Shown in pieces: positions 493 through 55,355 of a stretch of 64,000 nucleotides of DNA (position 1 is its first letter; each line of letters starts with the position of its first letter). The translations under genes and the position numbers were made by a program. Below the pieces are notes generated by a model. That model had not been told where the DNA came from. It searched no databases and saw nothing but the letters and a program-made list of their open reading frames with translations. Location: assembly GCA_951406725.2 (NCBI GenBank), contig OX597818.1:63736001-63800000 (forward strand), read 5' to 3'. Origin of the DNA: Octopus vulgaris. Its lineage: Eukaryota.

Positions 493-1020
493 TCTTTAAT
501 CTTACCTTCAGGGATTTTATTCTTTATTTTTGTTTTTACTAATCTTCTTTCTTCTTTCTCTTTAATTCTTTCCTTCTCTCCTCTTTTTATCTCTCTCTTT
601 TTTTCTTTTAAACACAAACCTCGAATCTGCTACATTCTATATAAATTCCCTACTGGGAATGACCAACTTTAAGAGAATCTTACGTTGCTTATAAATTTTA
701 CATTTGGATGGACTCATATTAAACTCATATTGGACTTTTGGATTTTACTCAACGGATATTGGAATAATACACATATATACCATTATGCCTATAAAACGGA
801 TTTATGAACTCAATAACCGTACATATCTTACATATGTTTTCTTTCCTCCACCTCACTCTCTATATCACATGGAAACTAACTATGACTTCACTTTTCCTCT
901 CACACCATCTCCGATGAAGGGATATTATTAATTAATATCCTAAAAACAGCTGTAAGACCTTCTATCTATAAATACTCTAATATCTATACAGCCTTGTTTT
1001 GTTTATCTCATTACGCAAAA
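491..1020 (+). mobile_element. Degenerate Penelope-like pseudo-LTR remnant carrying a decayed hammerhead
   Basis: Non-coding block bounded by (TA)n on both sides, containing an HHR-like motif at 908-957. Confidence 0.45.
908..957 (+). ncRNA. Minimal type I hammerhead motif, decayed (CCGAUGA core, G12 lost)
   Basis: tct-CCGATGA-ag-ggatatt(attaatt)aatatcc-taAAA-cagctg-TA|aga; stem I tct/aga, 7-bp stem II, palindromic ACAGCTGT stem III. Confidence 0.55.
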
Positions 1021-1060
1021 AATTCATATATATATACATATATACATATATATATATATG

Positions 1061-2678
1061 TAGGCCCTGATAGATTTCCCGCTAGTCTCCTGAAGGAATG
1101 TAGATATCAACTTGCTGTCCCTCTGACCAACCTCTGGAGAAACTCGTTAGACGCAGGTTATATACCGAAACAGCTTCTATCCCAGTCGGTCATCCCGGTT
1201 TTCAAACAGGGAAACAGATCCCTCGCAGTCAACTATCGCCCAATCTCACTCACCTCCCACATCATTAAAGTGTTTGAAAGAGTGTTAAGATCAAAGATAG
1301 CTGACTTCCTGGAGACCCACAAACTCCTAAATTCAAATCAGCATGGCTTTCGCTGTGGCAGGGACTGTCTAACACAGCTCTTACACCACATTGAAGATGT
1401 ACTCAAAGCCTTGGGAACAGGTTCGAACTCTGACGTCATATATCTTGACTTCAGTAAAGCGTTCGACAGGGTAGACCATAACATCCTACTCTCAAAATTG
1501 GCAAATGTTGGAATCCGTGGAAAAGTTCTACGCTGGATTCAGTATTTCCTGGCGAATAGAACACAACATGTTGTAGTTGATGGAGTCCACTCAAACCCAG
1601 CAAAAGTCACCAGCGGTGTTCCCCAGGGAACTGTTTTGGGTCCGCTACTCTTCATAATTTACGTAAACGACCTTTCCAGTGTCGTACATCACTGCAAAGT
1701 GAAAATATTCGCTGATGACACTAAGCTCCAGCAAATCGTCAATGAAGAAGCAGACCGAACTCAACTCCAGTCTGATCTATATGCTGTGAGTCAATTGGCA
1801 GACAGAAACAAAATGCAACTGAATGAGGGAAAATTTGAGCTGATGCATTTTGGAAGAAATTCCTCACTAAAACAACCATACTCTCTTCCTTCAGGGGAAC
1901 CGCTCACAACCTCTAACAATATCAGAGACCTGGGTGTAATTGTTGATGAAGATCTCAGTTGGAGTGCACACATCAACAAGAAGGTCGATATAGCTCGTAG
2001 GATGAGTTCCTGGATCTTAAGAACTTTCCGGTCCAGAGAACAAGGTGTCATCATACCACTTTTTTCCTCCTTTGTACGGCCACACCTTGAATACTGCTGC
2101 CCACTGTGGTCTCCTCACACAAGACAAAACATCTCCAGAATTGAGTCACCCCAGAGGGCTCTCACTAAACAAATTGAAGGCATGGCTGCTCTCGATTATT
2201 GGGATCGCCTTAAAGCCTTGAAACTTTACTCCCTCCAGCGTCGCCGTGAGCGGTACATCATTTGTACGATGTGGAAAATATACCGCCAACTTTGCCCAAA
2301 CGACCTAAACATTAGCTTCAAGGTTCATCCAAGACTTGGACCACGGGCTATACGTCCCCTGCCAAATTCAAGATCACAACATACATGTACACTGCAACAT
2401 AATTTCTTTTCCCCAACAGGCTCTGCCCTATTTAACATTGTCTCGAGGGAGATCAAAGAGGAAAAGGATCCCATCAACTTCAGACAGAGTCTGGATAGAT
2501 TCCTTCAAAGAATACCAGATAAGTCACCCATAATTGGATACAACTCACCCAACAAGAACTCACTACTTGAACAAAACTTGACTTAAACAGGATTCGAATA
2601 ATCCTATCTGTTGCTGCTATTAAGTTAGACATGGCCTGGACCAATCTCTGGTCGAAACATATCTAAGTTTTATCTAAG

Positions 2679-2682
<4 letters not shown>
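1061..2682 (+). mobile_element. 5'-truncated CR1-clade LINE
   Basis: Open RT frame to 2586, short 3' UTR with hairpin gacca-atctc-tggtc, tail (TATCTAAGTTT)x2; both ends abut (TA)n. Confidence 0.9.
1063..2586 (+). CDS. LINE ORF2 reverse transcriptase and C-terminal domain (partial, no endonuclease)
   Basis: GPD, NYRPISLTS, QHGF, YLDFSKAFD, GVPQGTVLGP, FADD, RPHLEY, LYSLQRRRER. The ORF-track start at 994 is read-through from flanking DNA. Confidence 0.92.
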   Translation, partial: GPDRFPASLLKECRYQLAVPLTNLWRNSLDAGYIPKQLLSQSVIPVFKQGNRSLAVNYRPISLTSHIIKVFERVLRSKIADFLETHKLLNSNQHGFRCGRDCLTQLLHHIEDVLKALGTGSNSDVIYLDFSKAFDRVDHNILLSKLANVGIRGKVLRWIQYFLANRTQHVVVDGVHSNPAKVTSGVPQGTVLGPLLFIIYVNDLSSVVHHCKVKIFADDTKLQQIVNEEADRTQLQSDLYAVSQLADRNKMQLNEGKFELMHFGRNSSLKQPYSLPSGEPLTTSNNIRDLGVIVDEDLSWSAHINKKVDIARRMSSWILRTFRSREQGVIIPLFSSFVRPHLEYCCPLWSPHTRQNISRIESPQRALTKQIEGMAALDYWDRLKALKLYSLQRRRERYIICTMWKIYRQLCPNDLNISFKVHPRLGPRAIRPLPNSRSQHTCTLQHNFFSPTGSALFNIVSREIKEEKDPINFRQSLDRFLQRIPDKSPIIGYNSPNKNSLLEQNLT

Positions 2683-2730
<48 letters not shown>

Positions 2731-2796
2731 TAGATATATAGATATATAGATAGATACATAGATAGATATATAGATATACATATATATGTATATTAT

Positions 2797-2866
<70 letters not shown>

Positions 2867-2914
2867 CTGTATGTATGTATGTATGTATGTATGTGTGTAT
2901 GTAGACACACACAT
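2683..2914. repeat. Compound microsatellite (TA)n/(TAGA)n/(CA)n/(TATG)n
   Basis: Seen directly. Confidence 0.95.
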
Positions 2915-3893
2915 ATAGGTAAATTAACTAGAGTTTGTTCCTGGCAAAGTTATCAAAATATCAAAGTAGAAGACGGGTGCAGTATAATTCCAGAAAGGAA
3001 TTTATGCTGTCATCTCGTCCTTAGATATAGTTCGTTGTAAAGCTAACACCGTCAGTAACTGCATGTAAATAAGATTAGAAAAAGATCAAAAGGAACTGAA
3101 TGAGTTCAAATGGAAATGATAATATTTTTATTGAAGCATAGCCTGCGATGTGACAGTTGAAACCGAACTAAGAATCAATGCTTTACAATCCCTCTTACGA
3201 ACCGATAATCTGTCACAAAAGGTATCGTTTTTATACATACACTTGCATATTGCTTGTGTATGCATGCTTTTAGTACGTAGGTTGCTTCGTTGAGCCAGGA
3301 TTAACATTAATACATAGAACCCCAACCGAACCAAATATTTGATTACACTGTGTAATATGAAACCCAAGTCTGTTGCTTCTCCATTCCACAAATTTTAATC
3401 ATTTCCATTATTTTACTTTAGAATGATATGATATCTGCCTCCTCAATACTTCTTAATAGCAAACTGTAATTGTCACGTATGAAATAAATTTTACATTTTA
3501 TCGAATTTTCTTTACTTCTTTTAGGGAATATATCATATTTTAAGTTGCGTTTCTTCCTTTGTCTTCTTCGTTTATTCGATATTATTTGTTAATATTAACG
3601 CAATGAAAACATATTCGGATTGACAATATGTTTTACTGTTTTTGCCATGTTGATATTATTTTGAAAAATATTTCCCGAAACAATATCAGTTTAAATAATG
3701 TCAAAAGAAACATCTTATGCATGCAACATATGGGAACTAACTACAAATGCACCATCGACCCAATGGCGAAACATTATGCAAAGTGGTATAATGTCGTTTA
3801 GCCATCTTGCAAATGTAAACAAGAGTTATCTCAAATAACAGACTATTGTCGTAAATGAAAATGACATTTGAAAATCGGATCCGAAATATGATG

Positions 3894-3947
<54 letters not shown>

Positions 3948-4589
3948 TTATATGCCTGTGTTTATGCATGCGCCTCTGTGCTTCTGTTTGGTTTTCCATT
4001 TGTGTAAGTGCGTTGTGTAAACGGAGCTGTGGTTCAGTTCTGTTTGTATCACAGGTACATTTGATTAGAACTGACACGGAGATAACAAACAGCAACAACT
4101 GGAACGTGATCATATTCTTCTACATATATGTTTGTATTGCTGTGTTCAAAACCTCTTATAGCTACAGGCAATAATATCGAGAGAAAAAAACAAGCGATTT
4201 TTATTTTTGACATTTTTTCTGGAAGTTAATCATGCTCATATGCTTTTCTCTGCTATCAACAAGAAACTCATCAATGATGTATAATATTTGAATATAAGCC
4301 TTCAAGTTTCCTTGTCTCCTAAATAAAGAAATATCTCTGCTAGAACGAGTAAACGCAATCCTTCTGTTAATAAAGACTAAGAACAGCAAGCAATAAGAAA
4401 AGAAATGTGATAACTACATATAACTGAACACTCTTCTCAACGACATTGGCGTAAAATGATTCTGATATTATTATGATGGATATATTTCGTGCATCGTGTA
4501 TTATTCCTTAATGATATGAAATATTTTTTTATATCCATTTTTATATTCGTATAAGCAATCTTTTTGCTTCACATGATTTCAGTCACGTT

Positions 4590-4765
4590 ATTCTTTTACG
4601 TTTACTCGTTTCAGTCATTAGACTGCAGTCATGCCGCGGTAGATCCTTGAAACATTTGTAGTCGAATGAATCGACGGCATTATTAACATCTTAAGCCTGC
4701 TATTTACGGGGGCGTAAACACAGCAGCGACGGTTGTCAATCGGTGGTGGGGAACAAGAAGAAACA
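4590..4765 (-). mobile_element. Degenerate family A SINE, 3' part
   Basis: tttactcgtttcagtcattagactgcagtcatgc matches the reverse complement of the 63259 copy's tail. Confidence 0.65.
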
Positions 4766-4799
4766 CAAGGACACACACACACACATTATATATATATGT

Positions 4800-5243
4800 A
4801 TATTAATTACAATCATAATGTTTCAGTGAATATCTTCGTAAGAACCTGGTTATTAACATCTCGAATTTTACAATTAAAATATCAAATTCCAAAGAATTGT
4901 CAAATACATTTTACTAAAAGGATATTTGAACCATGATTTGAATTTCAGAGAAGAAATATATCGTGTGTTCGAAAATTTTAAATCGAGGATCAATTAAATA
5001 TTGAGGCTAAGCCTTTTCAGTTTTTTGTTGTTTTTTTTTTAGTATAGACGTTTCAAATTACCACGAGTCGAAATATATTTATAATGACAATTTATATCTA
5101 CTGTATGTCGTCAAACTCACTGAAACCAAAAACCATTATAAAGGAGGAATAGTCAATATAATACAATGAGAATTTAATAGCAATGTAATTGTCACTGAAA
5201 TCGCCTCCAAATCCTTTTCAGTCTACCGTATTGCTGTCGGTAA
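4800..5243. repeat. Old inverted duplication, arm 1 (arm 2 at 7797-8232)
   Basis: Collinear reverse-complement matches, e.g. aatcataatgtttcagtg/cactgaaacattatgatt and attgaggctaa/ttagcctcaat. Confidence 0.85.
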
Positions 5244-7796: not shown

Positions 7797-8232
7797 ACTC
7801 ACCGACTGCAATACGGTTGACTGAACATGACTTGGAGGCGTTTTAAATCAAAATTACATTGATATTATACTGAACCCTCTTTCATAATGGTGTTTGGTTT
7901 CGGTGGGTTTGGCGACATACAGTAAATATAAACTCTCATTGTTGATATTTTGAGTCGTGATAAGTTGAAACGTCTCAACTACAAAAACTGAAAAAGTTTA
8001 GCCTCAATAGTTAATTAATCCTCGATTCTATGATTTCGAACACCCGATATATTTCTTCTCTCAGATTCAGATCATGCTACAAAAATCCTTTTAGTAAAAT
8101 ATATTTTCCAATGAAAGTAGAAATCAGTCTTTGGAATTTGATATTTTAATTGCAAATTTTGAAAAGTTATTAACTTTTCAAACCATGTTCTTACAAAGAT
8201 ATACACTGAAACATTATGATTGCAATTAATAA
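7797..8232. repeat. Old inverted duplication, arm 2
   Basis: Reverse complement of 4800-5243. Confidence 0.85.
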
Positions 8233-16827: not shown

Positions 16828-17010
16828 GGCGGCGAGCTGGGAGAAACGTTAGCACGTCTGTCTTAACGTTGTGAGTTCAAATTCCGCTGCGGTCGACTTG
16901 CATCCATTCGGGGTCGAAAAATTAAGTACCAGTTGGTTTCTAGGGTCGATCTAATTGACTGGCACCCTCCCCCAAAATTTAGGGCCTTGTGTCTAGAGTA
17001 GGAGAGATTA
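16828..17010 (+). mobile_element. SINE family B (variant tail)
   Basis: ggcggcgagctggg...gagttcaaattccg...ggggtcgaaaaattaagtaccag. Confidence 0.82.
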
Positions 17011-22106: not shown

Positions 22107-22199
22107 TATACACACACGCGCGCGCATACGCACACACATACACACATATATATATATATATATGGATGGACTAACACAAATATATAAAGATACCATGCA

Positions 22200-22894
22200 T
22201 TCATCACTTCAAGCTAAAACTTATATTCTTTAAATATCATTTTTACTATTGTTGTTATTACTATCATTTTTATTATAAATGATATGACAATTTGAAATGC
22301 AATTGTCTATGCAGATTTATATAATTAGAAAATAATATAAATAAAGTGTTAAAATCTGAAAGTTAAGTTAACAAGCAATTATATATATAAAAAAGATAAC
22401 GCAAATGAAGCTAAAATGATAATTTTATAATTTGGGTTTTATTGAAGAACTCAAAAGAGTTGTCTCCCCTTACTCACAACACAGGAACTAAAGAACCAGA
22501 ACCACAATTACTACTACTTCCTGTCCTGCAAACATGCTGAATTTAACAACACAACACATGCTCTTAATCCCTTTGGATCTTAACACCTCAAGGTAATTTT
22601 TTTCGTGAACAACCATAAAACTCAAGATACACAACGAACTCACAATGTATCGGAGAACTTATTTTTTAATTTTTGTACATTTTTATCATTATTCTTTTAC
22701 AAAAAACAATACAATTTTCTTTTTTCCCCCTTTCTAATTTTTAAAAAAACTTTTTAAAACATAAATATTCTTGACAAGTCATACAATGACGAAAACCGGT
22801 TGAATAAATATATATTTATATATTTTATCAATTTCTCATTTTATTAAAATTTTGTTTCATTTGAGCATTCTGCATTTTTAAAAAAATTTTTCCT

Positions 22895-22897
<3 letters not shown>
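22200..22897 (+). mobile_element. Penelope-like pseudo-LTR remnant
   Basis: Ends like the 29.9 kb PLE terminus: HHR, then aataaa, gcatttt...ccttac and (TA)n. Confidence 0.55.
22766..22806 (+). ncRNA. Minimal type I hammerhead motif with U3:A8 core
   Basis: tattc-TTGACAA-gtcat(aca)atgac-GAAA-a-ccggTT|gaata; 5-bp stems I and II; one extra A after GAAA. Confidence 0.7.
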
Positions 22898-22949
<52 letters not shown>

Positions 22950-23030
22950 CGTATATAGTATTCAATACTAAGAAAAGGGGAGATTTATCCGATAAACATC
23001 AATTTATTAACACCTTAATAAAATTGTCTG

Positions 23031-23130
23031 CTACCTACAATTGTTTCCATATTCAACTCACTCTATAACGAATTTAATAAATTAAAACTGAATTTTGAAA
23101 ATAGCAAGTTAAATACTTCATCAGGATGAG
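23031..23130 (-). ncRNA. Type I hammerhead motif with long stem II insert
   Basis: Minus strand: catc-CTGATGA-agtatt...aatatg-GAAA-caattg-TA|ggtag; palindrome ACAATTGT; stem I is weak. Confidence 0.55.
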
Positions 23131-24075: not shown

Positions 24076-24469
24076 ACTTATGGATTGAAACAGATGACAA
24101 ACTTATATACATAGACACATTGAATCTCGCTCACGCAAAGATGTAGAGGTACACACATTCACAAATACAGAAGCACGCACACACAAGAATACATGCGTAT
24201 GCAAAACACATACATACATACATAGTACATACACGCATGCAAACATATATACATAAATATGTGCATGCATACATTGCATACACAAGCACAAAAGTGCACA
24301 CAAACGCAACATGATGTCAAGCAGACAAAAGGTAGGTATCTCCGATAACGGAAAGAATGAACCCTATCAACAAAATGAATGAACTGTAAATACAAATTTT
24401 AAAAAATGAGTAGAAATTGAACTGATGAATGTCTTAAATACTAAGGAGGTGTGACCCTCTCCAGCAACA

Positions 24470-24556
<87 letters not shown>

Positions 24557-24590
24557 CATATGTATATACATATGTATATACATATGTAGA

Positions 24591-25511
24591 AAACTACAAA
24601 TAAAACCCATCCAAAATGAACCAGAAAACCAAAAAAACCTCAGGGAGAAACTAGCTTTTGAAAAATTCAAAACGGAAGTAGAACTCTTGCGGCTCAGAGC
24701 CAACACCAGTGAAGAAAAATCCAAGACCCTTGACAATGAAATGCAGATTGAAATCTCAAAACACTGTGAAGGAGCACTCCTTGATGAAACCACCAAACTC
24801 TGGAGAAAAAACTGCGAGGATGAAGAAATAACATCCCTCCAGCGAATGGAAAAAAACAGCTGGTTCACCAATTATGAAACAGAGTTCACAAAGGAACACC
24901 TTTCAAGCAACCCATATTTTAAAATATCTACTTCAACTCACACCCCTCGCCAAAAACAAAGAAAACCAACCACAAAACACCGAACACACACCACCCCTAA
25001 CATCGACAACAACAACAACAGAACTTACAGACAGCACTACAATCCCATCAAAAGAACCGAGACACCCATCATCACACGACAAAACTTTACCAGACAACGT
25101 AGACCCCAACCCACACAAGAACCGTTCCAGATTCGGAGATCCTACCCATCACTTAGAAACCCATCTCTGAACTATGATTGTAGATTCCAACCCAAACCGC
25201 TCCTAACTCAGAGTTCTCCCCCAACATATAGGAATTCACTCCTAAACCATGAATATAGTTTCCAACCCACTCTAAGGAACCAACATTACACCCAGGACAA
25301 ACGACCCAAACCCTGGAATAACCAAAACTCTTCCAGGAGGCCACACCAACAACCCAGACCCTGGAACAACCAAAACCTCCTCAACAGACAACATAGCAAC
25401 GGGGGACAGAATCACAACAACCAAAACCTCTTCAACAGACATGTCAACGGGGGACAGAATCACATACAGCAAAATACCGCAAATAGAAGAACCCCAGGAT
25501 TCCTTTTTTAG
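24591..25511 (+). CDS. PLE upstream ORF (5'-truncated): helical charged N-part and Q/N/R/P-rich repetitive C-part
   Basis: Open from the element edge (KLQIKPIQNEPENQ...) to TAG 25509-25511; repeats PWNNQN x2 and NGGQNH x2. Confidence 0.7.
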   Translation, partial: KLQIKPIQNEPENQKNLREKLAFEKFKTEVELLRLRANTSEEKSKTLDNEMQIEISKHCEGALLDETTKLWRKNCEDEEITSLQRMEKNSWFTNYETEFTKEHLSSNPYFKISTSTHTPRQKQRKPTTKHRTHTTPNIDNNNNRTYRQHYNPIKRTETPIITRQNFTRQRRPQPTQEPFQIRRSYPSLRNPSLNYDCRFQPKPLLTQSSPPTYRNSLLNHEYSFQPTLRNQHYTQDKRPKPWNNQNSSRRPHQQPRPWNNQNLLNRQHSNGGQNHNNQNLFNRHVNGGQNHIQQNTANRRTPGFLF

Positions 25512-27816
25512 GCAAGGGCATCAGTTTCCACGACACCAGATGGTAGATACCAACCCCGAAAAACCAAAAATAGTGAATCTTTCTAACCTAAACCTGTCGA
25601 CACCACAAATAAAAATCCTTTCAAGAGGACTGAAATTCACCCCAACTCCGCAATACCCTAACCTGAGGGAAATACAGGATGACATCTCGCACTTTTGCAG
25701 AAAATTACGCCTCACAGAGGAATTTTTTGACAGAAAAACTAATAATAACGACGAATCAATGGTCTGTAACAAAAGCAACTATAATCCCATAAAAGGCAAA
25801 AACAAAACCTTAGACAAATTTTGCGATTACATCTCCAACTTCCCTTATGGTGAACTCCCACAACCTAAACTCAAACCCAACACCAGTAAAAGAGAATGGG
25901 AAATCATCCATACACTACGAGACAATCATGACGTCACAATAAAGGAAGCTGATAAGGGTAGTACGGTCGTTGTTATGAATACTGAGCAATATAAAAACTC
26001 TGTATCTCTCCTTTTAGAGGATACCACATACTACGAAAGAGTAGTCGACTACCAGCAATCCAAAACAATGACCAATCTGAAGGCACTCATTTACCAACAC
26101 CGGAATGACTTGACAGCAAAGGAATGCGACTACATTACTAAATTTAATTGCAAAACCAGCACACTCTATGGCCTTCCAAAAATACACAAGAGTCAAATTA
26201 TCACAGAAGCTTGCAAAAAGTCCACTTCAACCTGCATCACTATACCACATCCCACTGATCTCAAACTGAGACCAATAGTGGCAGGCCCAAGTTGTGAAAC
26301 ACACAGACTTAGCAACTTTATAGATATCATCTTAAAGCCAATACTGAAACACATTCCAAGTATTGTAAGAGATGACCTGGACCTATTAAACCATCTCCCC
26401 AAACATGCCGATAAAGACACCTTAATCGTTTCTTTTGATGTTATTAATCTTTACACCACAATCCCACATGAATTTGGACTGGAAGCCATTAAATTCTGGC
26501 TGGATAAATATCCCAATGAGATCCCGGAAAGAATTAAAAAAGAATTCATAATTGAGGGCCTCAAATTTATTCTGCAAAACAACTTCATGTATTTCCACAA
26601 CAACACTTACAGACAGGTCTCAGGGACTGCAATGGGTACGAAAGTTGCACCTACCTATGCAAACCTGGTGATGGCCTACCTGGAATCACATATCTATGAA
26701 AAATCCAAATATAAGTACGGCCAGTCTTTCCACAAATACCTGTTGGAGAACTGGAAACGCTACTTAGATGATTGCCTCATCCTATGGTCCCACACACTCG
26801 ACCAACTTATAGACTTCAAAAACCTTATCAACAGTGTAAATAACAACATTCAATTCACAATGGAATATAGTCAGGACCAACTCCCTTTTCTTGACATCCT
26901 AATCATTAAAAAAGGCGTCAACATTGAAACTGACATCCATTACAAACCCACTGACTCTAAACAATACCTTCTATTCACCTCCAATCACCCAAAACACACA
27001 AAGACAAATATCCCCTTCAACCTAGCGAGAAGAATCTGCACTATTGTCTCAAATGACACAACACGAAATAGAAGACTCCGGGAACTAAGGGCAATTCTTC
27101 TCGAAAGACATTACCCGGCATCACTAGTAGACAACGGAATAGAACGGGCCAAATCAATCAACATTCAAGACCTTCGAAAACCCAAACACATCCACAGTAC
27201 AGTCAATAGCCTCCCTTATCTCTCAACACACAACCCAAGGAATGCAGAAGCTTACACTATTATATACAACAACATTCCACAACTAAATCAAGACCCACGC
27301 CTGAAAAAAATACTGGCAGCTCATAAAATAATAAAAAGTAAGAGACAACCTAAATCCCTAAAAAACCTCCTCACCAACGCAAAATTACACAACACAAACC
27401 CACCGCCCACCATCAAAAAATGTGGTCGCCCCAACTGTAAGACCTGCATCCACCTCATTGAGGGATCGTCGTACAAGTTCCACTCGGGACACACATTCAT
27501 CATAAAAAATAACTTCACGTGCGCATCAAAAAATTTACTCTACGTCATAAGGTGTGAAGGATGCCACGAAGACTACATAGGGCAAACGAGCCTTACCCTC
27601 AGAGACAGAATGACAGTTCACCGACAACAACTGAGGGACCCCTCCACAAGACAGATACCACTAAGTGGACACTTAGACCTTTGTGCACACAATAAGTCCC
27701 CCAAATTCTTAGTCTTCCCACTATACCAATGCTCGGACAACACCACAGACCAAACACGAATAAATAAGGAAAGTAATCTTATTCAAAAATACAGACCACA
27801 ACTAAACATACTCTAA
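25441..27816 (+). CDS. PLE reverse transcriptase and GIY-YIG endonuclease
   Basis: LSRGLKFTPTP, ADKG, YGLPKIHK, LRPIV, SFDVINLYTTIP, GTAMGT, RYLDD, LPFLD, CGRPNCKTC, LLYVIRCEGC..YIGQT, RMTVH; 791 aa with no stops. True start uncertain. Confidence 0.95.
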   Translation: MSTGDRITYSKIPQIEEPQDSFFRQGHQFPRHQMVDTNPEKPKIVNLSNLNLSTPQIKILSRGLKFTPTPQYPNLREIQDDISHFCRKLRLTEEFFDRKTNNNDESMVCNKSNYNPIKGKNKTLDKFCDYISNFPYGELPQPKLKPNTSKREWEIIHTLRDNHDVTIKEADKGSTVVVMNTEQYKNSVSLLLEDTTYYERVVDYQQSKTMTNLKALIYQHRNDLTAKECDYITKFNCKTSTLYGLPKIHKSQIITEACKKSTSTCITIPHPTDLKLRPIVAGPSCETHRLSNFIDIILKPILKHIPSIVRDDLDLLNHLPKHADKDTLIVSFDVINLYTTIPHEFGLEAIKFWLDKYPNEIPERIKKEFIIEGLKFILQNNFMYFHNNTYRQVSGTAMGTKVAPTYANLVMAYLESHIYEKSKYKYGQSFHKYLLENWKRYLDDCLILWSHTLDQLIDFKNLINSVNNNIQFTMEYSQDQLPFLDILIIKKGVNIETDIHYKPTDSKQYLLFTSNHPKHTKTNIPFNLARRICTIVSNDTTRNRRLRELRAILLERHYPASLVDNGIERAKSINIQDLRKPKHIHSTVNSLPYLSTHNPRNAEAYTIIYNNIPQLNQDPRLKKILAAHKIIKSKRQPKSLKNLLTNAKLHNTNPPPTIKKCGRPNCKTCIHLIEGSSYKFHSGHTFIIKNNFTCASKNLLYVIRCEGCHEDYIGQTSLTLRDRMTVHRQQLRDPSTRQIPLSGHLDLCAHNKSPKFLVFPLYQCSDNTTDQTRINKESNLIQKYRPQLNIL

Positions 27817-27964
27817 CATACCCCCTGGAAGCACATCCAGAGCAAGCACACAGGGACGCGCGCACGCTCACAGCATATCGTGCGGGCGGGCACATGCGCG
27901 CATCGGCACGCATAGGACACACTAGCGGGCATTGACCGCACACATACGTGGCATGCACGCGCAT

Positions 27965-28113
27965 GCATTATATATATGTAGGTGATATATGTGTGTGTGT
28001 GTGTGTGTGTGTGCACTGTGTGCGTGTGTGTGTATATGTGTGTGTGCGCGCGTTGTATGTGTTTGTGTGTGTGCACGTGTGTATATATGTGTGTGTGTGT
28101 GTGCACTGTGTGC

Positions 28114-28148
<35 letters not shown>

Positions 28149-28185
28149 CATTGTATACGTGTGTATGTATTTACATATGTATCTT

Positions 28186-28231
<46 letters not shown>

Positions 28232-29258
28232 TGTGTGTGTATATGCATGGTATGTGTGTATATGTTAGTACTTTGTTTGTGTGTATGTGCGGCATGTAGA
28301 GATATATTTGAATGTGTACGCTATAGGTTTGTAATTTGTGTGTGTGGGGGGTGGTGAATTTTTTATATATATATGTGTGTGTGTATGTGTGTGAAAAAAT
28401 ATATGTATGTGCATGTATGTATGTATGTATGTGTGTATATATATATATATATATGTGTATATATATGTGTGTGTGTGTATGTGTGTGTGTGTATATTTAT
28501 TTGCATGTTTATGTGTGTATAAACATGTACATTATTTGCATGCGCATTGTATATGTGTATATTGTATGTATGTGTATTGGATATGTACGTGTACAATTAA
28601 GTGTATATATTTGTGTGTATGTGTGCACTGTATATATGTATATTGTAGGTGTGCTATATGTGCATGAATACATGTATATGCATTATGTGTATATATATGT
28701 ATGCATTGTGTGTGTATGTATGTTATGTGTGTGTGTGTGTGTATATATATATTATATGTATGCGTACGTGTATGTGTATGCATTGTGTGTATGTGTGTTG
28801 TGTGTATATGTGGTACATTTATGTATGTGTATGTAAACACTATTTATATGTATATGTGTATATATGTATATGCATTGTCTATATATATATATATTGTATG
28901 TATGTATTGCGTATGTATATTGCATGCATATATTGTGTATGTATATTACTTACATGCTGTATGTGTGTATTGTATGTGTATATATATATGCTAGGTGTAT
29001 TTGTGTGATATTTATATTATGTATGTATGTGTGCGTGTGTGTTGTGTGTGTGTGTGTGTATGTGTGTTATATATCTGTGTATATTATATATAGATACATG
29101 TTATATTTGTGTGCTGTGTATATATGTGATATATGTGGGTGCGTTGTGTGTGGGTGTGTGTGTGTGTTGTCTGTATGTGGTTTGTGTTTGTATACTATGT
29201 GTGTGTGTGTGTGTGTTGTTGTGTGTGTGTGTGTTTGTGTGTATATATATGTGTGTGA
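27965..29258. repeat. Degenerate (TG)/(TA)-derived cryptic microsatellite
   Basis: About 1.3 kb of purine/pyrimidine alternation with many interruptions. Confidence 0.9.
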
Positions 29259-29612
29259 CAAACAGACGCTGTCTGACCAGCAGGCACGGACACATCTATT
29301 CACACCCGCATACTAACCTCCTGATAACCCCAAAATCATTCATGCATAAAGGGGAAGTATACACCACATTGGCTACTTCTGTTCTCTCAGTTCAGCCTTT
29401 CTGCTAATACTAACAGGTCAGTAAAAACATACTTAGAATATTCTGAGATGGACAAAAAATCCATTTTAATTTTTGCTGTCAAAACGCTGTATATATATAC
29501 CAAAGATTGTATATATATACATGTAATGTGACAATTTGCGACAACCAATAATTAACGCAACCAATTCCCAATAATATATTTGTTTTATCCTTTTCTGCCA
29601 AATTTTCCCAAA

Positions 29613-29843
29613 TAATGTGACAATTATGTATAAAAAAACATTTTTGAATTCATAATATCCAATGTGACAATTATGTAAAAAACTTTTTTGAATGCATAAT
29701 ATTCAATGTGACAATTATGTAAAAAACTTTTTTTGAACCCATAATATCCAATGTGACAATTATGTAAAAAACTTTTTTGAATGCATAATATTCAATGTGA
29801 CAATTATGTAAAAAACTTTTTTTGAACCCATATTATTCAATGT
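29613..29843. repeat. About 44-48 bp minisatellite, 5 units
   Basis: Unit aatgtgacaattatgtaaaaaactttt(t)ttgaa(tg/cc)cataatat(t/c)c. Confidence 0.92.
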
Positions 29844-29856
29844 TTCCTTAAATGTA

Positions 29857-29897
29857 ACTTTTGACAATCTTTTACCAAAGAGTGAAACCGGTTAAGT
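29857..29897 (+). ncRNA. Minimal type I hammerhead motif with U3:A8 core at the PLE 3' end
   Basis: actt-TTGACAA-tcttt(tacc)aaaga-gt-GAAA-ccggTT|aagt. Confidence 0.7.
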
Positions 29898-29941
29898 AAA
29901 TAAACATCGTTTAAATTGCATTTTCAAACCTTTTTTCTTAC

Positions 29942-30198
29942 ATATATACATATATATATATACATATACATATATATATGTATATGTATGTGTTTATGTA
30001 TGTATATATATATACATATATACATATATATATATATATACATATATATATGTATATGTATGCATAGATGTATGTACTTATGTATATACATATATATATA
30101 TATATGTATATACATATGTATATATATATATGTATATATTCATATATATATATACATATACATATATATATTTATATGTATGCATAGTTGTATGTATT

Positions 30199-30248
<50 letters not shown>

Positions 30249-30252
30249 TATA
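29942..30252. repeat. (TA)n/(TACA)n tract with internal repeated blocks
   Basis: Seen directly. Confidence 0.9.
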
Positions 30253-30396
30253 TTATTTACATTATTTACAATTCACGATATTTGTCCTCATCATATTTGT
30301 TTTTAACATAACGTTTCGGCTGATATACCCGCCACCCTTCATCAGGTGTCCTGGGGAAATTTCGAACCTGGGTTCTCATTCCTAAGGTATTTTTGA

Positions 30397-30463
<67 letters not shown>

Positions 30464-30607
30464 ATTATTATACAGGGTACTTCCTGGAATCGAACTCGAA
30501 ATCTTGGGGTTAGTAGCCCGCGCTTTTAACCACTATGCCAAAAGCCCATGGGCAAATATTTACAATTGACAAATATCCGTCAATTCCTCATCTCTTAAAT
30601 ACAGAAC

Positions 30608-37827: not shown

Positions 37828-38146
37828 GTGAGGGCGCGTGGCTTAGTGGTTAGGGTATTCGGCTCATGATCGTAAGGTTGTGAGTTCGATTCCCGCCGAC
37901 GCGTTGTGTCCTTGAGCAAGACACTTTATTTCACGTTGCTCCAGTCCACACAGTTGGCAAAAATGAGTTGTACTTGTATTTCAAAGGGGCAGCCTTGTCA
38001 CTCTCTGTGTCACGCTGATTATCCCTGAGAACTACGTTAAGGGTACACGTGTCTGTGGAATGCTCAGCCATTTGCACGTTAATTTAACGAGCAAGCTGTT
38101 CCGTTGATCGTATCAGCTGGGACCCTCGTCGTCGTAACCGGCGGAG

Positions 38147-38690: not shown

Positions 38691-38731
<41 letters not shown>

Positions 38732-39059
38732 ACGTAGATTGATTGCAGTACTCTACGGTTGTTTCCGACGTGTTATTTAAAGTCAATAAACCGGTTTAAA
38801 TGATCTCTGCATTTTCAAATCCTCTTTCCTATATATAAGTGGTATTTACTAGACCCAGGATGGCAGGTAAGGCTATGTAAGTGCTACGGAAGGACCGTAG
38901 CTACACTCTCGGTTCCATTGTGATACGAGAGAGGAATCAAACGTGGGTGCAGTGTGTGCATATATATATGAAATAAAATGAGACAACAAAGCCAAGTGTA
39001 TATATATATGTATATAGGTGTGTGTATGTGTTTATATATTTATATCTGTATATATATAT

Positions 39060-39272
39060 TCAAAATGTGACCGCGTGTGTATCGTTGGCGATTTTTTCGC
39101 CTCCGTCTTCCCTTCCTTGGATCTTCCCTTTTCCCATGTTTCTGACGAAGAGCTCCGCTCGAAACGTTAATTCCAACTTTTCTTTCCTTTCTTGAGCGTC
39201 CAATAACACTATACTTGTTCCACGTTCTCGCGTTGTTTTGTTTTTTTCTCTTTGAGTTTTCATGTTTGGATT

Positions 39273-39276
<4 letters not shown>
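39060..39276 (+). mobile_element. Short hammerhead-bearing pLTR-like element in (TA)n
   Basis: About 215 bp between TA tracts with a central HHR. Confidence 0.65.
39138..39172 (+). ncRNA. Minimal type I hammerhead motif
   Basis: gttt-CTGACGA-a-gagc(tcc)gctc-GAAA-cgTT|aatt; core intact, stem I short. Confidence 0.75.
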
Positions 39277-39333
<57 letters not shown>

Positions 39334-46089: not shown

Positions 46090-47686
46090 ATATGTATGCA
46101 TGTGCGTATGCATACATACATCAAATTTTGGGATGCCTGTAAAACGACAAGCATAGACAGCTCTTTGAATCCTAGAATCAAGGGAGGCAATTGTTTAAAA
46201 CTTAATTTGATTCCAAAACTAATATTATAATTTCTTTTCATATGAAATAAAATTACAATTATGTATAATACAATAAATATTATTATTGTAACTAAAAATA
46301 TAATTATACCGAAGTGCACCTTTCACTGTTAATTATAAGTTACGGACTAATAGGAAATTACGAAAAAGCAATTAAATTGCAGTAGAAATTAAATATTAAA
46401 GTTAATGAAATTTTTTCAAAATCATTTCTTATATATTTGCTATGTATAATTGACTTAAAATATCGGTCAATTCATTTATATATGATTTAATTAAGAGCAG
46501 TAAATACAATATTTATTTCACTGTTTCATTTATTCATCTATCCTTATGACACTAACATGGATCTTCAACACACATACAGACACAAATACTTGTGTGTGTT
46601 CGGATGGATACATATACTGATGCGTATATATCCACACATATGTATGCTGTATATGTGTTTGTGCGATTGTGCTTGCTTGCATGTGTGTGTGTGTACATAT
46701 GAACGCGTTTGTAAGAGAAATTAAAACGTGCCTCTTCAAACAGATGGTTTTGATCATTAATAAATGAAGATTAATTATAATATGAAATATAACGCTATGG
46801 AATAAATGATGAGAAATATTCCACTGATTAAGTTCTGTTTCATTTATTATGCATGCTCTATACACTTTGTCATCGATTTTGTAAACCTCAAACAGATTAG
46901 AATAATCATAACTGATTTTTTTATGAATTTCTCTATTTTTTCATTTAATATAATGAAATAAAAAAATAACAAAATTGCAAGTGAAGAAGAGGGAGATAAC
47001 ACATTTATTTTTAATTACATTATTCACTAATATGAGTTAAAATTGGATAAAGAATGAAATGCCTTAAAAATGCGATAAACACGTAATTGAATCGGTATCC
47101 TGGAAAACGTTATTTATAATGGAACGCTTCTTAGTATAACCTAAGATGTATTTAGGTACATCTGTTAGTTTTTATGTTAAACCCCATATGCTGTATTCCC
47201 TTCGGGTTCCTTTCGTCTCGTTAATACAGTTCAATAATGAATAGTTATTAACTATGGACATATAAGTAATAAAATATAATGATAAATACATCGTTACATA
47301 GTCACGTGGAGCAAAACTTCTGATTTAAAGTAGTCTGATGCTAATGGCACTGTGGCAATATATAATTCATATTTAAATAAATATATGATAGATATTGGTT
47401 ATATAAATAATCACTCACTCACATACACACGCACATACATAAGTGCGCACAAACGCTTGTGCTGTTGCTATGCATGGATACCTGACGGTGGAACGAGCTC
47501 ACATGCTGTATGTATCCACATAATTTTGTGTATGCGTAAGAGATCGGGCATTTCTTTAGGTGACATTGTTAGCAGGAATGTTAAGTAGCCAGGGTATAAT
47601 CAATTAGTATTAGATGAATATGAATATATACATACATGCATAAACATAAACACACACTTATATATATATACAAATATATATATATA

Positions 47687-47888
47687 GTCGCCATGATAGA
47701 TCGTTAGCTACTACACAGATTTTTTTCTTTCCTTGTTTCTCTCCTTGTTTTTTTCTGTGACCCTTTCAGTAGAAGAGCGTAGGCTCGAAACGTAAAATAC
47801 TTTTTCTATTCCTGAGCGTTATACAAATACATCTGTTTGTTTTGTACACCTCCTGTCTTCGTCTTTTGTTTTTTTCGTAAAATCTCCC
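47687..47888 (+). mobile_element. Short pLTR-like element with decayed hammerhead (47763-47797)
   Basis: ttt-CAGTAGA-a-gagc(gtag)gctc-GAAA-cgTA|aaa; same stem II and downstream tgagcgt as the 39060 element. Confidence 0.6.
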
Positions 47889-47934
<46 letters not shown>

Positions 47935-49451: not shown

Positions 49452-49494
<43 letters not shown>

Positions 49495-50525: not shown

Positions 50526-50700
50526 TACAGAGCAGTTCCCTGCGGGATGCCCCATAAGATATGACTTTCCTCAGAAAGGGAACCATTTGCTACGACGACC
50601 TGATTTCTGTCTTTAAGCAAGATATGTAGCCACTCACCCAGTTTCGCAACAATACCAAAGTCCTTTAGCATATGAAGTATCATGCCGTGATCTACATTAT
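50526..50700 (-). mobile_element. CR1-clade RT fragment
   Basis: DHGMILHML...GIVAKLGEWL..LKDRNQVVVANG...GIPQGTAL. Confidence 0.8.
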
Positions 50701-51070
50701 CATTTCTGGATGGATCCAGGTGTTCTGGTGATTTCAGAGCCTTTAGAATGCTTTTTATGCTTTGATACTAGCTCCTTACAAAATTTGCAGACGAAAGATC
50801 TGGTAACTTTTATGAATCGAAATTTATAAATCGCTATGCACATCCTTTATAACCACAATAATAGCATGCGTCTTCATTTCTTGAGTAAACTGAGGTTCTG
50901 CCATTATTAATTTTTGAATAAAAGAGTTAGCAATGAACCAAAAACGTATGTCCTCAAACATCTTACGCATACTGTACATGTAATTTTGTATTTGTGTTTA
51001 TACCTTGCATTATGCAATGCCCTTAAAAACCCATTTACGCTATTAGGGTGCCTGATGTCATCAAGAGTAT

Positions 51071-51568
51071 GAACCATGTGGTTGGTAAGCAAGCTACTTA
51101 CCACACAACTACTCCTGATCCTATATATGTATATGTATAGATACATATATCGAGACACATAGATACACGTAGACACAGTATGCACACACCCAGTCTAGAG
51201 GCGGTACGAGCGCTGAGTACACTTGAACACATGAAACCATGGGATAGAATGAAGTGTGAGTCCAGGAAATGCAGGTCTTGGGTGATCTGGGGAGGCAAAT
51301 TGACAAACAATATCGTGCTGCAACAGCAAGGAGAAAATAATCCGTCAATAGAAGAAAATCCACTAAAATGCCTTCCAAAGAGTTTTTACAATTTCCTTTC
51401 TTGCAGAACGAATGACATTTATACTGAGAAGCAAGCTGAGAGGTGGCTACCGAGGAGTGGAAGATCAGGGCTTCCTGGAAAATAAAAGACACGATTCTAC
51501 CAAAACTGACTGCTCCCAATGTTCACTGCAACAATGGTTTGGTCAATCTTACGAGTACAATTGCGACA
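51071..51568 (+). repeat. Local copy of 48319-48817 (SINE A head and HERO fragment)
   Basis: Collinear high identity; flanked by a direct repeat at 50982-51071 and 51568-51657. Confidence 0.92.
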
Positions 51569-52108
51569 ATTTTGTATTTGTGTTTATACCTTGCATTAAT
51601 CAATGCCCTTAAAAACCCATTCACGCTATTAGGGTGCCTGATGTCATCAAGAGTATGGATATAAGTGCCATTGGATTCACTTCAGGAATTCTTTCGCCTA
51701 TCTAGCGATTTTAACGTACGAGAGAAAGAGAAAGAAAATGGGATTTAAGAGCTTTGCAATCGAAGCCGTTTCGTCATGAGTCTCATTTGGTACATGCAGA
51801 GAAGGTACATATTAAAATAGGAAAATAGGAAAATATTTTACATTTTGCTTTTTTTCTTTATCCCGCATTAGTTATTTGTTTTTTAACAAATAGGAATTGT
51901 ATAAGTATATGTAGAAGATTACCAATTTTCTTAACCAAATTACAAACATACATTTGATTGAGCTAATATAAGGCATTGCATATTAATCAGAAACCATATA
52001 TTTGAGAAGGATATAATGATGAAACATCACGATATTAGTAAAGTGACAGTGTCAAGACTGATGTATTATACATACACAGGAAATATGTCTGTGTATATAT
52101 ATATATAT

Positions 52109-52153
<45 letters not shown>

Positions 52154-52256
52154 AAGAAGGGAAAATAAACTCGTATGCACGCACACTTAGATACATTTGA
52201 GCAGCGGTGTGTGATTTCATGCTTATATATATATAAATCATATATAATATATAATT

Positions 52257-52468
52257 AATCAATATAGGGTGGCAAAAAAAAATTTTGTAGAATTCTTTTG
52301 CCACCAGCGGCCTAGTAGGAAAAAATTAAATAGTCATAGACCATTTTTAGGTTCAACATCAACAATCAAGGAACGGCCATAATAGGCCGTTCACCCACTA
52401 GAAATAACAGCAAAAGCTTCAACCGCAAGTAAAAGTCAATTCTGTAAACTAGGAGAAAATTTAAAAAA
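52257..52468. mobile_element. Second copy (single arm) of the 18840 repeat
   Basis: atcaatatagggtggcaaaa...ggagaaaatttaaaaaa. Confidence 0.9.
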
Positions 52469-53621
52469 GTGAAAGAATAAACTCGTATGCACGCACACTT
52501 AGATACATTTGAGCGAGCGTGTGTGTGATTTGCCATGCTTGATAGGTAAATGTGAATGATCAAATCAGTTTTCTTTATAAAAGTAATTTATAAAATAAAT
52601 ATATATATATATATATATATATATCTCTATATATTATATATGCATGTATGTAAGTATGTATGTATCCGTGCCTGAATGCTATATTCGTTTCATGTGCGTT
52701 GCTATGTTTATATGAATATAGGTTTGTGCATGCAAATAGGCTTTGGGTGTGACTTAATATATGCTAATTAGAAATTAGAAATTTCGTGTAGAAATCTAAG
52801 TATCTGTGATGCTATTTTGATATCAGTTGTTACCAAATGTCGAATTATGCAGGTGCTCTGTGTTGGATACGAGAACTTATACTAAACAATATATATCATA
52901 ATAACATTTGCTCAACAAGTATATATAAACGGTATATGAGTTGCATGGTCGTACTCAGTGCAAGTTTAATTGCTTCCTTCTTCCATGTTCCATTAATAGA
53001 AAATTGAATAAATCTTCTTATGTGCGCACTATCTACAATCCTTCAAGCAATTTATTTGCGTAACGAACGTGTCTAGATGTGAAGATCGATGTCTCACATA
53101 ATGTTTGCTAGTGCAGTCATCTTTGCATGAAAATATGTACATATATAGTTTTAGTTCTCATACATAACTAGACTGAACGACACTAACTTAGCACGTTTTT
53201 ATCTTTGATAAGGATATTTATATATATCCGTATATGTTATGTGACTTTAACTCCAGTTCGACTTCTATAACAATATAATATGATGTATTCTTTTTTCCCA
53301 CTGAGGAGAATAATAATATGCAATTAATTAAATTATGATTAAATCAATTTCTAATTTTTTAGCTTGTTATTTACAAGTTAACATTACCGTACGAAACGCT
53401 CGTATGCATGGATTAAATTCCTTTTATACTTTTAACACCTTTTCTTCTCCAACTTTAATTGCTTCTATAGGATATGTGTTCTATAAATACTCATAACACA
53501 CCTTATACTTGTAGCACTTTCGTATTCGGAAAGGAAGCTAACAATGTAATGTGAAGAATATTTACTAGAAATCGACCTTTGGATCCGCGCAAAGTAAAGG
53601 ATGTAATAGAACGCAAAATCT

Positions 53622-53682
<61 letters not shown>

Positions 53683-53960
53683 GGGAATAACTTGTAAGTG
53701 GACATCCATTATGCTAGAAGTAGATCAGCTATCATCTAACCACTAAGAAAAGAATGTTCTCAAGAAAATTTATTTTGTATCTTTTCATTTATCTTCCTCG
53801 CTTGCGTTCTGGCGTTTGCTAAATTTTCTTATAGTATGACATTAAATGGTTAAATACAACTGAAAGTGACTTGTGAATGTAGTGGTGATACAATTCATGA
53901 GGCGTCTCTTTTGAATGTATTATTTATAAAATATGCGAAGGTGTTATTCTAAACAGCATA

Positions 53961-53994
<34 letters not shown>

Positions 53995-53999
<5 letters not shown>

Positions 54000-55355
54000 A
54001 ACAAGAATGACTCCGGCAATTTGGTACGATCGTTTCGTACTACATCATTTTATTAAATGTTGTAAGTATTACAACAGATTTAAAATGCCGAGTACTCAGC
54101 AGCCAATTATAGAAGTTTTCCATTAATACAAAAATTTTCACATCAAGTGGCAACATTATAGAGAAGGTAGATATATAGACAAAGATGTGGCTGTAAATTT
54201 TAAGAACATTTGAGGTAGTGGAGCCCATCAACTGACTGACCACGATTTGGTTGATCCAAACTACTGTAGGGTTGTGAGAAGGAAGAATAAGTTGAAGGAG
54301 ACAATAAAGATTTTCTAATTATAGAAATGGGGAAAGGGGGTTTCAGAGCTCCATATAAGGAATTTATGTGGAAGACAGAATTGTCACTACTAAATACGAA
54401 TTACTACTATTTGATGAACAGATTCGGCGTTAGGAGAGCTAGATCAATGTCAAGTGGTCACAATCCCATTCACAGAGAGTGCAAAGACCTTACAAACCCT
54501 ATGCACATCAACACAACAGTTGGTCTATAGAATCAAGGAAAAATATAAATCTAAAATTTATTCAATTTGGAGAAAAAGACTATCACTTATTATGAGTAGG
54601 CATAGTACCTATTAACTGGGGAAAATCTTATTAATCAAGTGAACCTATTATGGGTTAAAATATATACTAAGAAAGATGGAAGAGGGAAAAATCAAAGAAA
54701 GAAGATTTAGAAGAATGTAATATTTTATAATGTGAGAGGAGGTAATTTAGAAGTGTAACTTATTCAAATTTTATGGATGGTGAGTTGATATTAATGAATT
54801 AAAAAATAGGATCTATTGGGGATAAAATTTACTACCTGCGGATAAAAGTTAATTAGTTAGGTAAAAATATATTAGGTTAATTATATATTAAGAAATGAGA
54901 TTGTGATAATGGGGATGGACCAAATAGTTACCCTAGGGACATAGGATTAATACTACTTAGTATTAGAGAACATTATAAAAATAAGAATCTAATTCTAAGT
55001 TTATAATGAAGTTCTTCAATCATATATTAGTATTAAACTAAAACCAGTATGGTATATTCGTTCCTATTTGGTTAAATATATATTTTGTAAAGATATCTTA
55101 GACTAATTATATATTAAGAAATGGAAGTGAGGTAATCAAGGTGAACCGAATAGTTTCTTTAGTGACATAGGATTCATACTATTTAGTATTCCTACTATTT
55201 GGGATTCATACTATTTAGGATTCTAACTATTTAGATTAATGCAGTTTAATTTTAGGAAAACGAATTCAATTTTAAGTTTGCAGTGAAGTTTTTTTAGTCA
55301 TCTATGAATGTTAAATTGAAAGCCAGCATGGTATATTCCTTCTTATTTGATTATA
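53995..55355 (-). mobile_element. Decayed Penelope-like element 3' part with internal tandem duplication
   Basis: HHR at 54019-54107; weak minus-strand NIPYWF.FNTNI..KNF similarity to the PLE post-RT region; 54881-55078 is repeated at 55107-55355. Confidence 0.5.
54019..54107 (-). ncRNA. Type I hammerhead with long stem II and A6C core change
   Basis: ttgg-CTGCTGA-gtac...tgttgtaa(tac)ttacaaca...gtac-GAAA-cgatcg-TA|ccaa. Confidence 0.75.

Follow-up and report, generated by a model that had tools for sequence, protein, structure and literature searches.

Introduction

Penelope-like elements (PLEs) carry hammerhead ribozymes near their 3' ends, some of these elements favour (TA)n, and their copies are found 5'-truncated, in tandem and inverted (passages of PMC8557442). 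The minimal hammerhead ribozymes (min-HHRs) of PLE terminal repeats are characterized, in the sections of PMC4209133 (Cervera and de la Pena 2014) used here, by an extra base between positions 9 and 10.1, a G10.1-C11.1 pair, a helix I of 4-5 base pairs (bp), a palindromic 15.2-16.2 and weak in vitro cleavage, and a dimer is proposed; the same sections report a U3-A8 core variant with about 1300 matches in Schistosoma. In the active ribozyme, C3 and G8 pair (PMC3884650). The dimer model is reviewed in parts of PMC6765202 together with schistosome elements similar to short interspersed elements (SINEs) that combine a promoter with a hammerhead, and protein-free hammerhead units riding on PLEs were proposed for animals (passages of PMC7229834 and of preprint 10.64898/2026.07.22.740005). 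Here we analyse hammerhead-like sites in a stretch of Octopus vulgaris DNA (assembly GCA_951406725.2, contig OX597818.1, positions 63,736,001 to 63,800,000, forward strand), which is 64,000 nucleotides long and is called the window below. A first-pass annotation of its letters had listed about eight minimal hammerheads, each with a palindromic stem III. We consider it likely that these sites are minimal type I hammerhead motifs located 45-120 bases from the 3' ends of PLEs and of (TA)n-inserting non-autonomous elements, with self-cleavage predicted to proceed in a dimer.

Results

Hammerhead architecture in seven repeat families

Every site lies within the tail of a repeat family. The eight families (A, A2, B, C1, C2, D, E and F) were searched across the 2.8-Gb genome; the candidate numbers given below stem from a first look and do not represent copy numbers. 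The fold was judged from alignments of 24-29 genomic copies per family and from the commonest real copies. Seven of the eight families possess the hammerhead architecture, with a helix II that closes beside the core and a palindromic stem III. Read in the true register, helix I forms 4 or more consecutive pairs in each of the seven, compared with 0-3 in six slid registers; a random window position would give 4 or more with a probability of 0.033. Furthermore, the letters of helices I and II differ between families on both sides of the helix, and the core letters are constant. For example, pair 2.1-1.1 is U-A in C1 vs C-G in C2, and pair 2.3-1.3 is C-G in C1 vs U-A in C2. The core boxes of the commonest copies are canonical in A, B and F and of the U3-A8 type in C1 and C2, and H17 is U or A in all seven families, never G. 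Families A, A2, B, C1 and D have an additional base between A9 and 10.1, which C2 and F lack. The closing pair G10.1-C11.1 is found in A, A2, B, C2 and F; D has G.U at this position, and C1 has C-G between two unpaired U. This conservation of catalytic letters across families that otherwise share nothing provides indirect support for the predicted cleavage.

The link to PLEs drawn in the first-pass annotation was borne out, as site 29857 falls 50 bases short of the 3' end of C1, a full-length element that encodes a reverse transcriptase (RT) and a GIY-YIG domain. Its count of about eight hammerheads stood in large part: a minimal type I hammerhead is present in genomic copies of seven of the eight families, and the site at 23031 (family E) lost its support.

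Window copies and expectation by chance

The window's own copies match the catalytic boxes (canonical or U3-A8) in four of eight cases. The canonical core is present in two window copies only, at 30339-30345 (-) and 39142-39148 (+), and the U3-A8 variant TTGACAA in two others, at 22771 and 29861 (both +). The four remaining copies (908, 47763, 54019 and 23031) are degenerate. For 54019, the core had been placed wrongly in the first pass; the true core is 59 bases upstream and reads CTGCTGA in the window copy. Judged by such disabling changes, most copies in the window are probably inert relics.

A strict search for CTGANGA and GAAAC separated by 4-30 bases gave two matches, 30313-30345 (-) and 39142-39165 (+), with 0.39 expected; a count of 2 was reached by 4 of 100 shuffles. 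Comparison with shuffled background had been set beforehand as the test of the proposed motifs, and its outcome depends on the definition used. A loose motif (AA followed by an AC..GT palindrome, with a core of at most 2 mismatches within 4-40 bases) does not exceed background, since its 40 sites compare with 35.2 +/- 6.1 in global and 30.7 +/- 5.3 in local dinucleotide shuffles (200 each). The full hammerhead fold, however, is far above background. The full descriptor (4 bp or more in each of helices I and II, canonical or U3-A8 core, GAA(A), A..U palindrome, H17 other than G) was matched at 22771 (+), at 29861 (+) and, with a one-mismatch core, at 54102 (-), i.e., three times vs ~0.05 expected (shuffle means 0.009, 0.0007 and 0.037; 2764 local shuffles). 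None of the 2764 shuffles contained at least 2 strict matches or at least 3 matches of any kind.

GAA followed by an AC..GT palindrome is enriched in the window (20 vs 7.5 expected; reached by 0 of 200 shuffles), because several repeat families carry GAAACGT. Part of the GAAACGT excess is due to three copies of another SINE-like head with GGCGAGCTGG.AGAAACGTTAGCACGCC, at 16843 (+), 20668 (-) and 32287 (-), and to a tRNA-like stretch at 37834-37903 (+; Rfam 31.9 bits). Additional GAAACGT(C) sites are found in repeats at 7967 (+), 5054 (-) and 12756 (-); 12756 has a core with one mismatch and is followed 122 bases later by a (TA)n tract. A search of the whole window against Rfam at gathering scores returned the tRNA-like stretch and no hammerhead; at E values up to 10, (TA)n look-alikes of microRNA families were obtained, and no hammerhead was among the matches listed.

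Penelope-like elements C1, C2 and C3

C1 contains two overlapping open reading frames (ORFs) in different frames, 24438-25511 and 25276-27816. The longer one encodes the RT (RVT_1, 32.8 bits) and, in the same ORF, the GIY-YIG domain (24.2 bits vs the Pfam cut-off of 22.6), and a C-x4-C-x2-C linker is present in its translation. The 3' untranslated region (UTR) of 2.1 kb comprises a variable TG/TA tract of 1.3 kb (27970-29260) and four tandem repeats of 44-45 bases (29631-29852). The tail gave 915 first-look candidates, and all 40 scored genomic copies were 100% identical over 151 bases; ORF pieces at other loci are 99.8-100% identical. The C1 loci include 5'-truncated copies, tandem copies at two loci and inverted ones at two others. 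(TA)n is present at both ends of the element, and the truncation points vary among copies. In Rfam, the C1 hammerhead matches Hammerhead_HH9 only (11.6 bits vs a gathering score of 52).

Contigs assembled from four sequencing runs cover part of this tail. In those of three runs, position 29893 (the predicted H17) is A instead of T; both letters are allowed at a cut site. Contigs of all four runs span the predicted cut site over 29262-29935; as assembled contigs whose RNA origin is a guess, they are uninformative on cleavage. In contigs of three runs, 29564 is joined to ~29852 with 4-9 other letters in between. This junction represents a subfamily that is devoid of the tandem repeats and retains the hammerhead module from 29852 onward.

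C2 gave 1135 first-look candidates, and its copies are 98-99% identical. The ORF at C2 loci shares 54-59% identity with the C1 protein and ends ~620 bases upstream of the tail query; the query itself starts ~30 bases before the hammerhead motif. A decayed tail of a third type, C3, had been missed by the first-pass annotation; loci of this type possess ORFs 50-68% identical to the C1 protein.

Non-autonomous families

Families A (2292 first-look candidates, copies about 90% identical) and A2 (at least 2216, 90-95%) are related. The commonest core of A2 is CUGUAGA (U6), present in 19 of 24 copies. No same-strand abutting copies were found among the 43 (A) and 41 (A2) matches listed, and the flanks of 29 A copies contained no neighbouring unit. 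SINE B gave 2742 first-look candidates with copies about 92% identical. Its hammerhead is intact in 19 of 24 copies; ten of these 19 have all five helix I pairs and eight have a mismatch at 1.1. The window copy differs from most others at 1.1 and in helix II. In 13 of 24 loci, the SINE B head precedes the tail by no more than 400 bases. This head is weakly tRNA-like (Rfam tRNA, 17.6 bits vs 29, E 0.14; box-like words by eye only), and ARAGORN found no tRNA in it.

Family D yielded at least 2649 first-look candidates (copies about 91% identical). CCGATGA, GAA and ACAGCTGT are kept together in 17 of 24 copies, 15 of which have a helix I of 4 bp. The commonest D core, CCGATGA, contains a CpG, and CTGATGA is present in one of the 24 copies; therefore, CpG decay would turn the variant core into the canonical one. 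An open frame with an RT of the long interspersed element (LINE) type (886-2586; RVT_1, 105 bits) starts directly after the (TA)n of the D copy; its first ~60 codons are microsatellite. Family F (1264 first-look candidates, copies 96-98% identical) has an intact canonical CTGATGA core in 22 of 24 copies; GAAAC lies 59 bases downstream of it, and helix I (UUGG/CCAA) is extended beyond a bulge. For an intact F copy, the best Rfam family is Hammerhead_1 (RF00163; E 0.018); the window copy reaches 12.3 bits as an Rfam hammerhead.

Both D and F show variable 5' truncation, and head-to-head inverted pairs are present in the match lists of A, B, D and F. Families A, A2, the tRNA-headed SINE B, D and F are probably copied by the PLE machinery, as they target (TA)n in the same way and form head-to-head inverted pairs of the same kind.

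Family E

Family E is old (68 first-look candidates, copies 73-86% identical). Neither the window copy nor 24 relatives possess a recognisable 5' core or helix II, and its letters do not support site 23031 as a hammerhead. GAAAC and the palindrome are located upstream of TTTTGACAAT in E, a word that also opens the C1 motif. The GAAA strand thus comes first, followed by the cut-site strand and then by the core strand. The corresponding type II reading (GAAAC, palindrome, UUGACAA) was rejected as too weak, with six helix II pairs (including three G.U) and three helix I pairs.

Table 1. Elements and hammerhead parts in the window, with the commonest genomic copy of each family (slashes set off the helix I strands; brackets enclose helix II).
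Feature	Position	Strand	Site: palindrome, position	Parts	Commonest copy
C1, full-length young PLE	~24590-29944	+		RT, GIY-YIG, identical tail copies	
C1 hammerhead	29856-29897	+	29857: ACCGGT, 29887-29892	helix I 29857-29860; core TTGACAA 29861-29867 (U3-A8); unpaired U 29868; helix II 29869-29882; unpaired U 29883; GAA 29884-29886; H17 T 29893; helix I 3' strand 29894-29897; predicted cut after 29893	ACUU/UUGACAA-U-[CUUUU ACCA AAGAG]-U-GAA-ACCGGU-U/AAGU
C2 copy, 5'-truncated 3' UTR of PLE	22162-22898	+			
C2 hammerhead		+	22766: ACCGGT, 22795-22800	helix I 22766-22770; core TTGACAA 22771-22777 (U3-A8); helix II 22778-22790; GAAA 22791-22794; H17 T 22801; helix I 3' strand 22802-22806; predicted cut after 22801	UAUUC/UUGACAA-[GUCAU ACA AUGAC]-GAA(A)-ACCGGU-U/GAAUA
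C3, decayed PLE tail	38728-38838	+	ACCGGT, 38790-38795		
A copy, discrete ~220-base non-autonomous unit ending in (TA)n	39066-39285	+			
A hammerhead		+	39138: ACGT, 39164-39167	helix I 39137-39141; core CTGACGA 39142-39148; unpaired A 39149; helix II 39150-39160; GAA 39161-39163; H17 T 39168	UGUUU/CUGACGA-A-[GAGC UCC GCUC]-GAA-ACGU-U/AAAU
A2 copy, discrete ~220-base unit, relative of A	47659-47893	+			
A2 hammerhead		+	47763: ACGT, 47790-47793	core 47767-47773 (CAGTAGA here); helix II 47775-47786; GAA 47787-47789; H17 A 47794	CCUUU/CUGUAGA-A-[GAGC GUAG GCUC]-GAA-ACGU-A/AAAG
SINE B	30252-30558	-		weakly tRNA-like head 30547-30475; (AAT)n; hammerhead tail	
SINE B hammerhead		-	30305: ACGT, 30311-30314	helix I 30350-30346; core CTGATGA 30345-30339; unpaired A 30338; helix II 30337-30318; GAA 30317-30315; H17 T 30310; helix I 3' strand 30309-30305	GACAC/CUGAUGA-A-[GGCUGG..UCAGCC]-GAA-ACGU-U/GUGUU
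D copy, 5'-truncated, ends in (TA)n	488-1039	+			
D hammerhead	907-958	+	908: ACAGCTGT, 946-953	helix I 5' strand 907-910 (ATCT here, GTCT in most); core CCGATGA 911-917 (C4); unpaired A 918; helix II 919-941; unpaired A 942; AAA 943-945 (G12 lost here); H17 A 954; helix I 3' strand 955-958	GUCU/CCGAUGA-A-[9 bp]-A-GAA-ACAGCUGU-A/AGAC
F copy, variable 5' truncation in family	54000-54903	-			
F hammerhead	54108-54018	-	54019: ACGATCGT, 54026-54033	helix I 54108-54103; core 54102-54096 (CTGCTGA here); helix II GUAC/GUAC closing 51-base insert (54095-54037); GAA 54036-54034; H17 A 54025; helix I 3' strand 54024-54018	UUGG/CUGAUGA-[GUAC..51 nt..GUAC]-GAA-ACGAUCGU-A/CCAA
E copy, old	22958-23110	-	23031: ACAATTGT, 23037-23044	GAAAC 23043-23047	

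Palindromes and (TA)n tracts

The window is AT-rich (30-40% G+C) and contains 66 (TA)n tracts of at least 12 bases. All eight palindromes named by the first-pass annotation were found at their positions, and five different ones are indeed distributed over the eight sites (ACAGCTGT, ACCGGT, ACAATTGT, ACGT and ACGATCGT). A stem III palindrome (15.2-16.2) is thus present at every site; however, the sites had been picked for this very feature, and palindromy itself cannot be counted as evidence for that reason. The proposed association with (TA)n proved real. Read in the orientation of the motif, all eight sites precede a (TA)n tract by 43-116 bases (as determined by a scan for six sites and read directly from the sequence for 908 and 22766), and 7 of 20 GAAAC-palindrome sites have a tract within 140 bases downstream, vs 13.4% of random positions. 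Two (TA)n tracts each hold two elements arranged tail to tail, C2 with E (22900-22957) and C1 with SINE B (29940-30255), an arrangement that fits repeated targeting of one microsatellite.

Discussion

Dimer cleavage

According to the published PLE model, the palindromic stem III would pair two copies, located on one or two transcripts, into a double hammerhead, which would then cut after H17. For D and C2, the predicted minimum-energy homodimer is this double hammerhead, with a gain of -13.3 and -11.3 kcal/mol, respectively, over two monomers.

A number of observations weigh against reading these motifs as PLE-related hammerheads that self-cleave. The minimum-energy dimer of A, A2, B, C1 and F is not a double hammerhead; as this structure was predicted for two of seven families only, we do not use dimer folding as general support. 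C1 has a competing 8-bp hairpin, and the 4-base palindrome ACGU provides little pairing energy. In vitro cleavage by published PLE hammerheads is poor, also in dimeric form (PMC4209133, in part). The commonest cores are off-consensus in two high-copy families, D (CCGAUGA, C4) and A2 (CUGUAGA, U6), and changes at conserved core positions reportedly weaken or eliminate cleavage (Ruffner 1990, cited within a passage of PMC8490949). No site reaches the gathering score of an Rfam hammerhead (RF00163, RF00008, RF02275-7), and those at 39142 and 30345 (families A and B) have no Rfam hammerhead match at all, even at E 10. Moreover, for A, A2, B, D and F we found no coding PLE partner within 1.5 kb and no tail shared with a coding PLE.

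Finally, the starts of C2 copies give no genomic footprint of cleavage. We sampled 29 C2 copies with a query restricted to the 97 bases that follow the predicted cut; not one of them starts at the cut site, and the copied template therefore seems to be uncut RNA. Sixteen copies extend upstream beyond the window copy, two represent an internal-deletion variant, and none starts inside the motif. Six of 27 independent copies start within 15 bases of one another, 9-23 bases upstream of helix I (window-equivalent 22743-22757), and these clustered starts possibly mark a transcription start in the terminal repeat. As the short C2 copies always contain the whole motif, the view of the motif as a recognition handle stays alive.

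Alternative roles of the fold

The hammerhead fold could be a common handle for the PLE RT-endonuclease, on which unrelated parasites, including a pol III SINE, have converged, with catalysis being optional. We regard this as rather unlikely, though it would explain how families with C4 or U6 have reached thousands of copies. Likewise unlikely in our view is the more general possibility that the fold is preserved chiefly as a structural tag close to the 3' end, to be recognised by the PLE RT or by some other factor, that non-autonomous elements copy this tag and are mobilised through it, and that self-cleavage is dispensable. Such a tag would agree with the presence of the fold 45-120 bases from the (TA)n-tailed 3' end in families without other common sequence, with the spread of D and A2 (at least 2649 and 2216 first-look candidates, respectively) despite C4 or U6 in their commonest cores, and with the C2 copies, of which 0 of 29 start at the cut and six start upstream of it and include the whole motif. 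Besides, Naiad PLEs proliferate without canonical hammerheads (passages of PMC8557442). However, the invariant letters are exactly the catalytic ones. The lone double change (U3-A8) keeps the C3-G8 pair and therefore points to selection on the catalytic core. Furthermore, H17 is never G in the seven families, and the single polymorphism seen at this position is U/A. A ribozyme that would cleave in the dimer accounts for these letters in our preferred reading.

The first-pass annotation had also suggested that the stem III palindrome serves as a family-specific pairing code, such that dimerisation and cutting would be confined to transcripts of one family. The same position does hold five different palindromes, and the longer ones (ACAGCUGU, ACCGGU/AACCGGUU) dominate the predicted dimers of D and C2. 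However, eight families use only five palindromes, and these are shared between distinct families: C1 and C2 are both young (100% and 98-99% identity) and their proteins are 54-59% identical, yet both have ACCGGU, which is common to C3 as well, and ACGU is common to A, A2 and the unrelated SINE B. This pattern, with two co-active young PLE families using one palindrome, is the reverse of a family-specific code and is expected from descent alone, and the palindromy of sites chosen for it is no evidence. A code at the family level is thus unsupported and appears very improbable, and an effect of the palindrome at the level of lineages may exist. Least probable of all, the motifs would be chance look-alikes in AT-rich, repeat-rich DNA, as the background level of the loose motif, the lack of an Rfam match at threshold and site 23031 (without core or helix II even in 24 relatives) might suggest; this is refuted for seven sites by the excess of the full descriptor, the pairing of helix I in seven of seven families in the correct register only, the fixed position of the motifs near (TA)n-tailed 3' ends and the location of one of them inside a coding PLE, and it stands for 23031 alone.

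Comparison with known systems

Among the papers listed by our literature search for hammerhead ribozymes and octopus, none describes these motifs in octopus. The word "hammerhead" is absent from a paper on Octopus vulgaris repeats (PMC13282606), and "mollus" is absent from the main text of PMC4209133. Many PLE families and protein-free riders are present in this genome, and every one has a minimal hammerhead close to its tail. Of note for ribozyme biology, natural master sequences with C4, U6 and U3-A8 cores exist, and one SINE joins a minimal hammerhead tail to a weakly tRNA-like head. The core variants, SINE B and the C2 copy starts away from the cut site bear on the role of PLE hammerheads.

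The sections of PMC8490949 and PMC6765202 that deal with the schistosome elements SMalpha and Sjalpha (Ferbeyre 1998, Laha 2000) describe the same order as in SINE B, i.e., a promoter-bearing head followed by a type I hammerhead. SINE B differs in that its hammerhead is minimal, with a palindrome of 4 bases, and in its internal (AAT)n, its (TA)n tail and a head that is only weakly tRNA-like. Animal non-LTR (long terminal repeat) retrozymes, as depicted in passages of PMC7229834 (Cervera and de la Pena 2020) and of Li, Clavereau and Pollet (2026), resemble A and A2 as protein-free type I hammerhead units (of ~220 bases in A and A2) found beside PLEs. However, retrozymes are tandem arrays of units of 170-400 bases and have canonical hammerheads with loop-loop contacts, whereas A and A2 occur as scattered individual units that end in (TA)n and bear hammerheads of the minimal kind. 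With respect to Rfam Hammerhead_1 (RF00163), the intact F copy aligns end to end, to all 45 positions of the model, but scores 19.6 bits vs 34; the other families have no match or a trivial one.

The closest relatives are the PLE min-HHRs, as far as the sections of PMC4209133 cited above describe them. Common features are the CUGANGA/GAAA or U3-A8 boxes, a helix I of 4-5 bp, a loop-less palindromic stem III, the extra base after A9 (in A, A2, B, C1 and D), the location near PLE ends and the high sequence diversity between families inside one genome. The differences consist in the host, which is another animal genome here, in the C4 and U6 cores of the commonest D and A2 copies, in the single unpaired U on both sides of helix II in C1 and in the 51-base insert of F. 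The motifs are further members of the known PLE min-HHR kind and do not constitute a new category.

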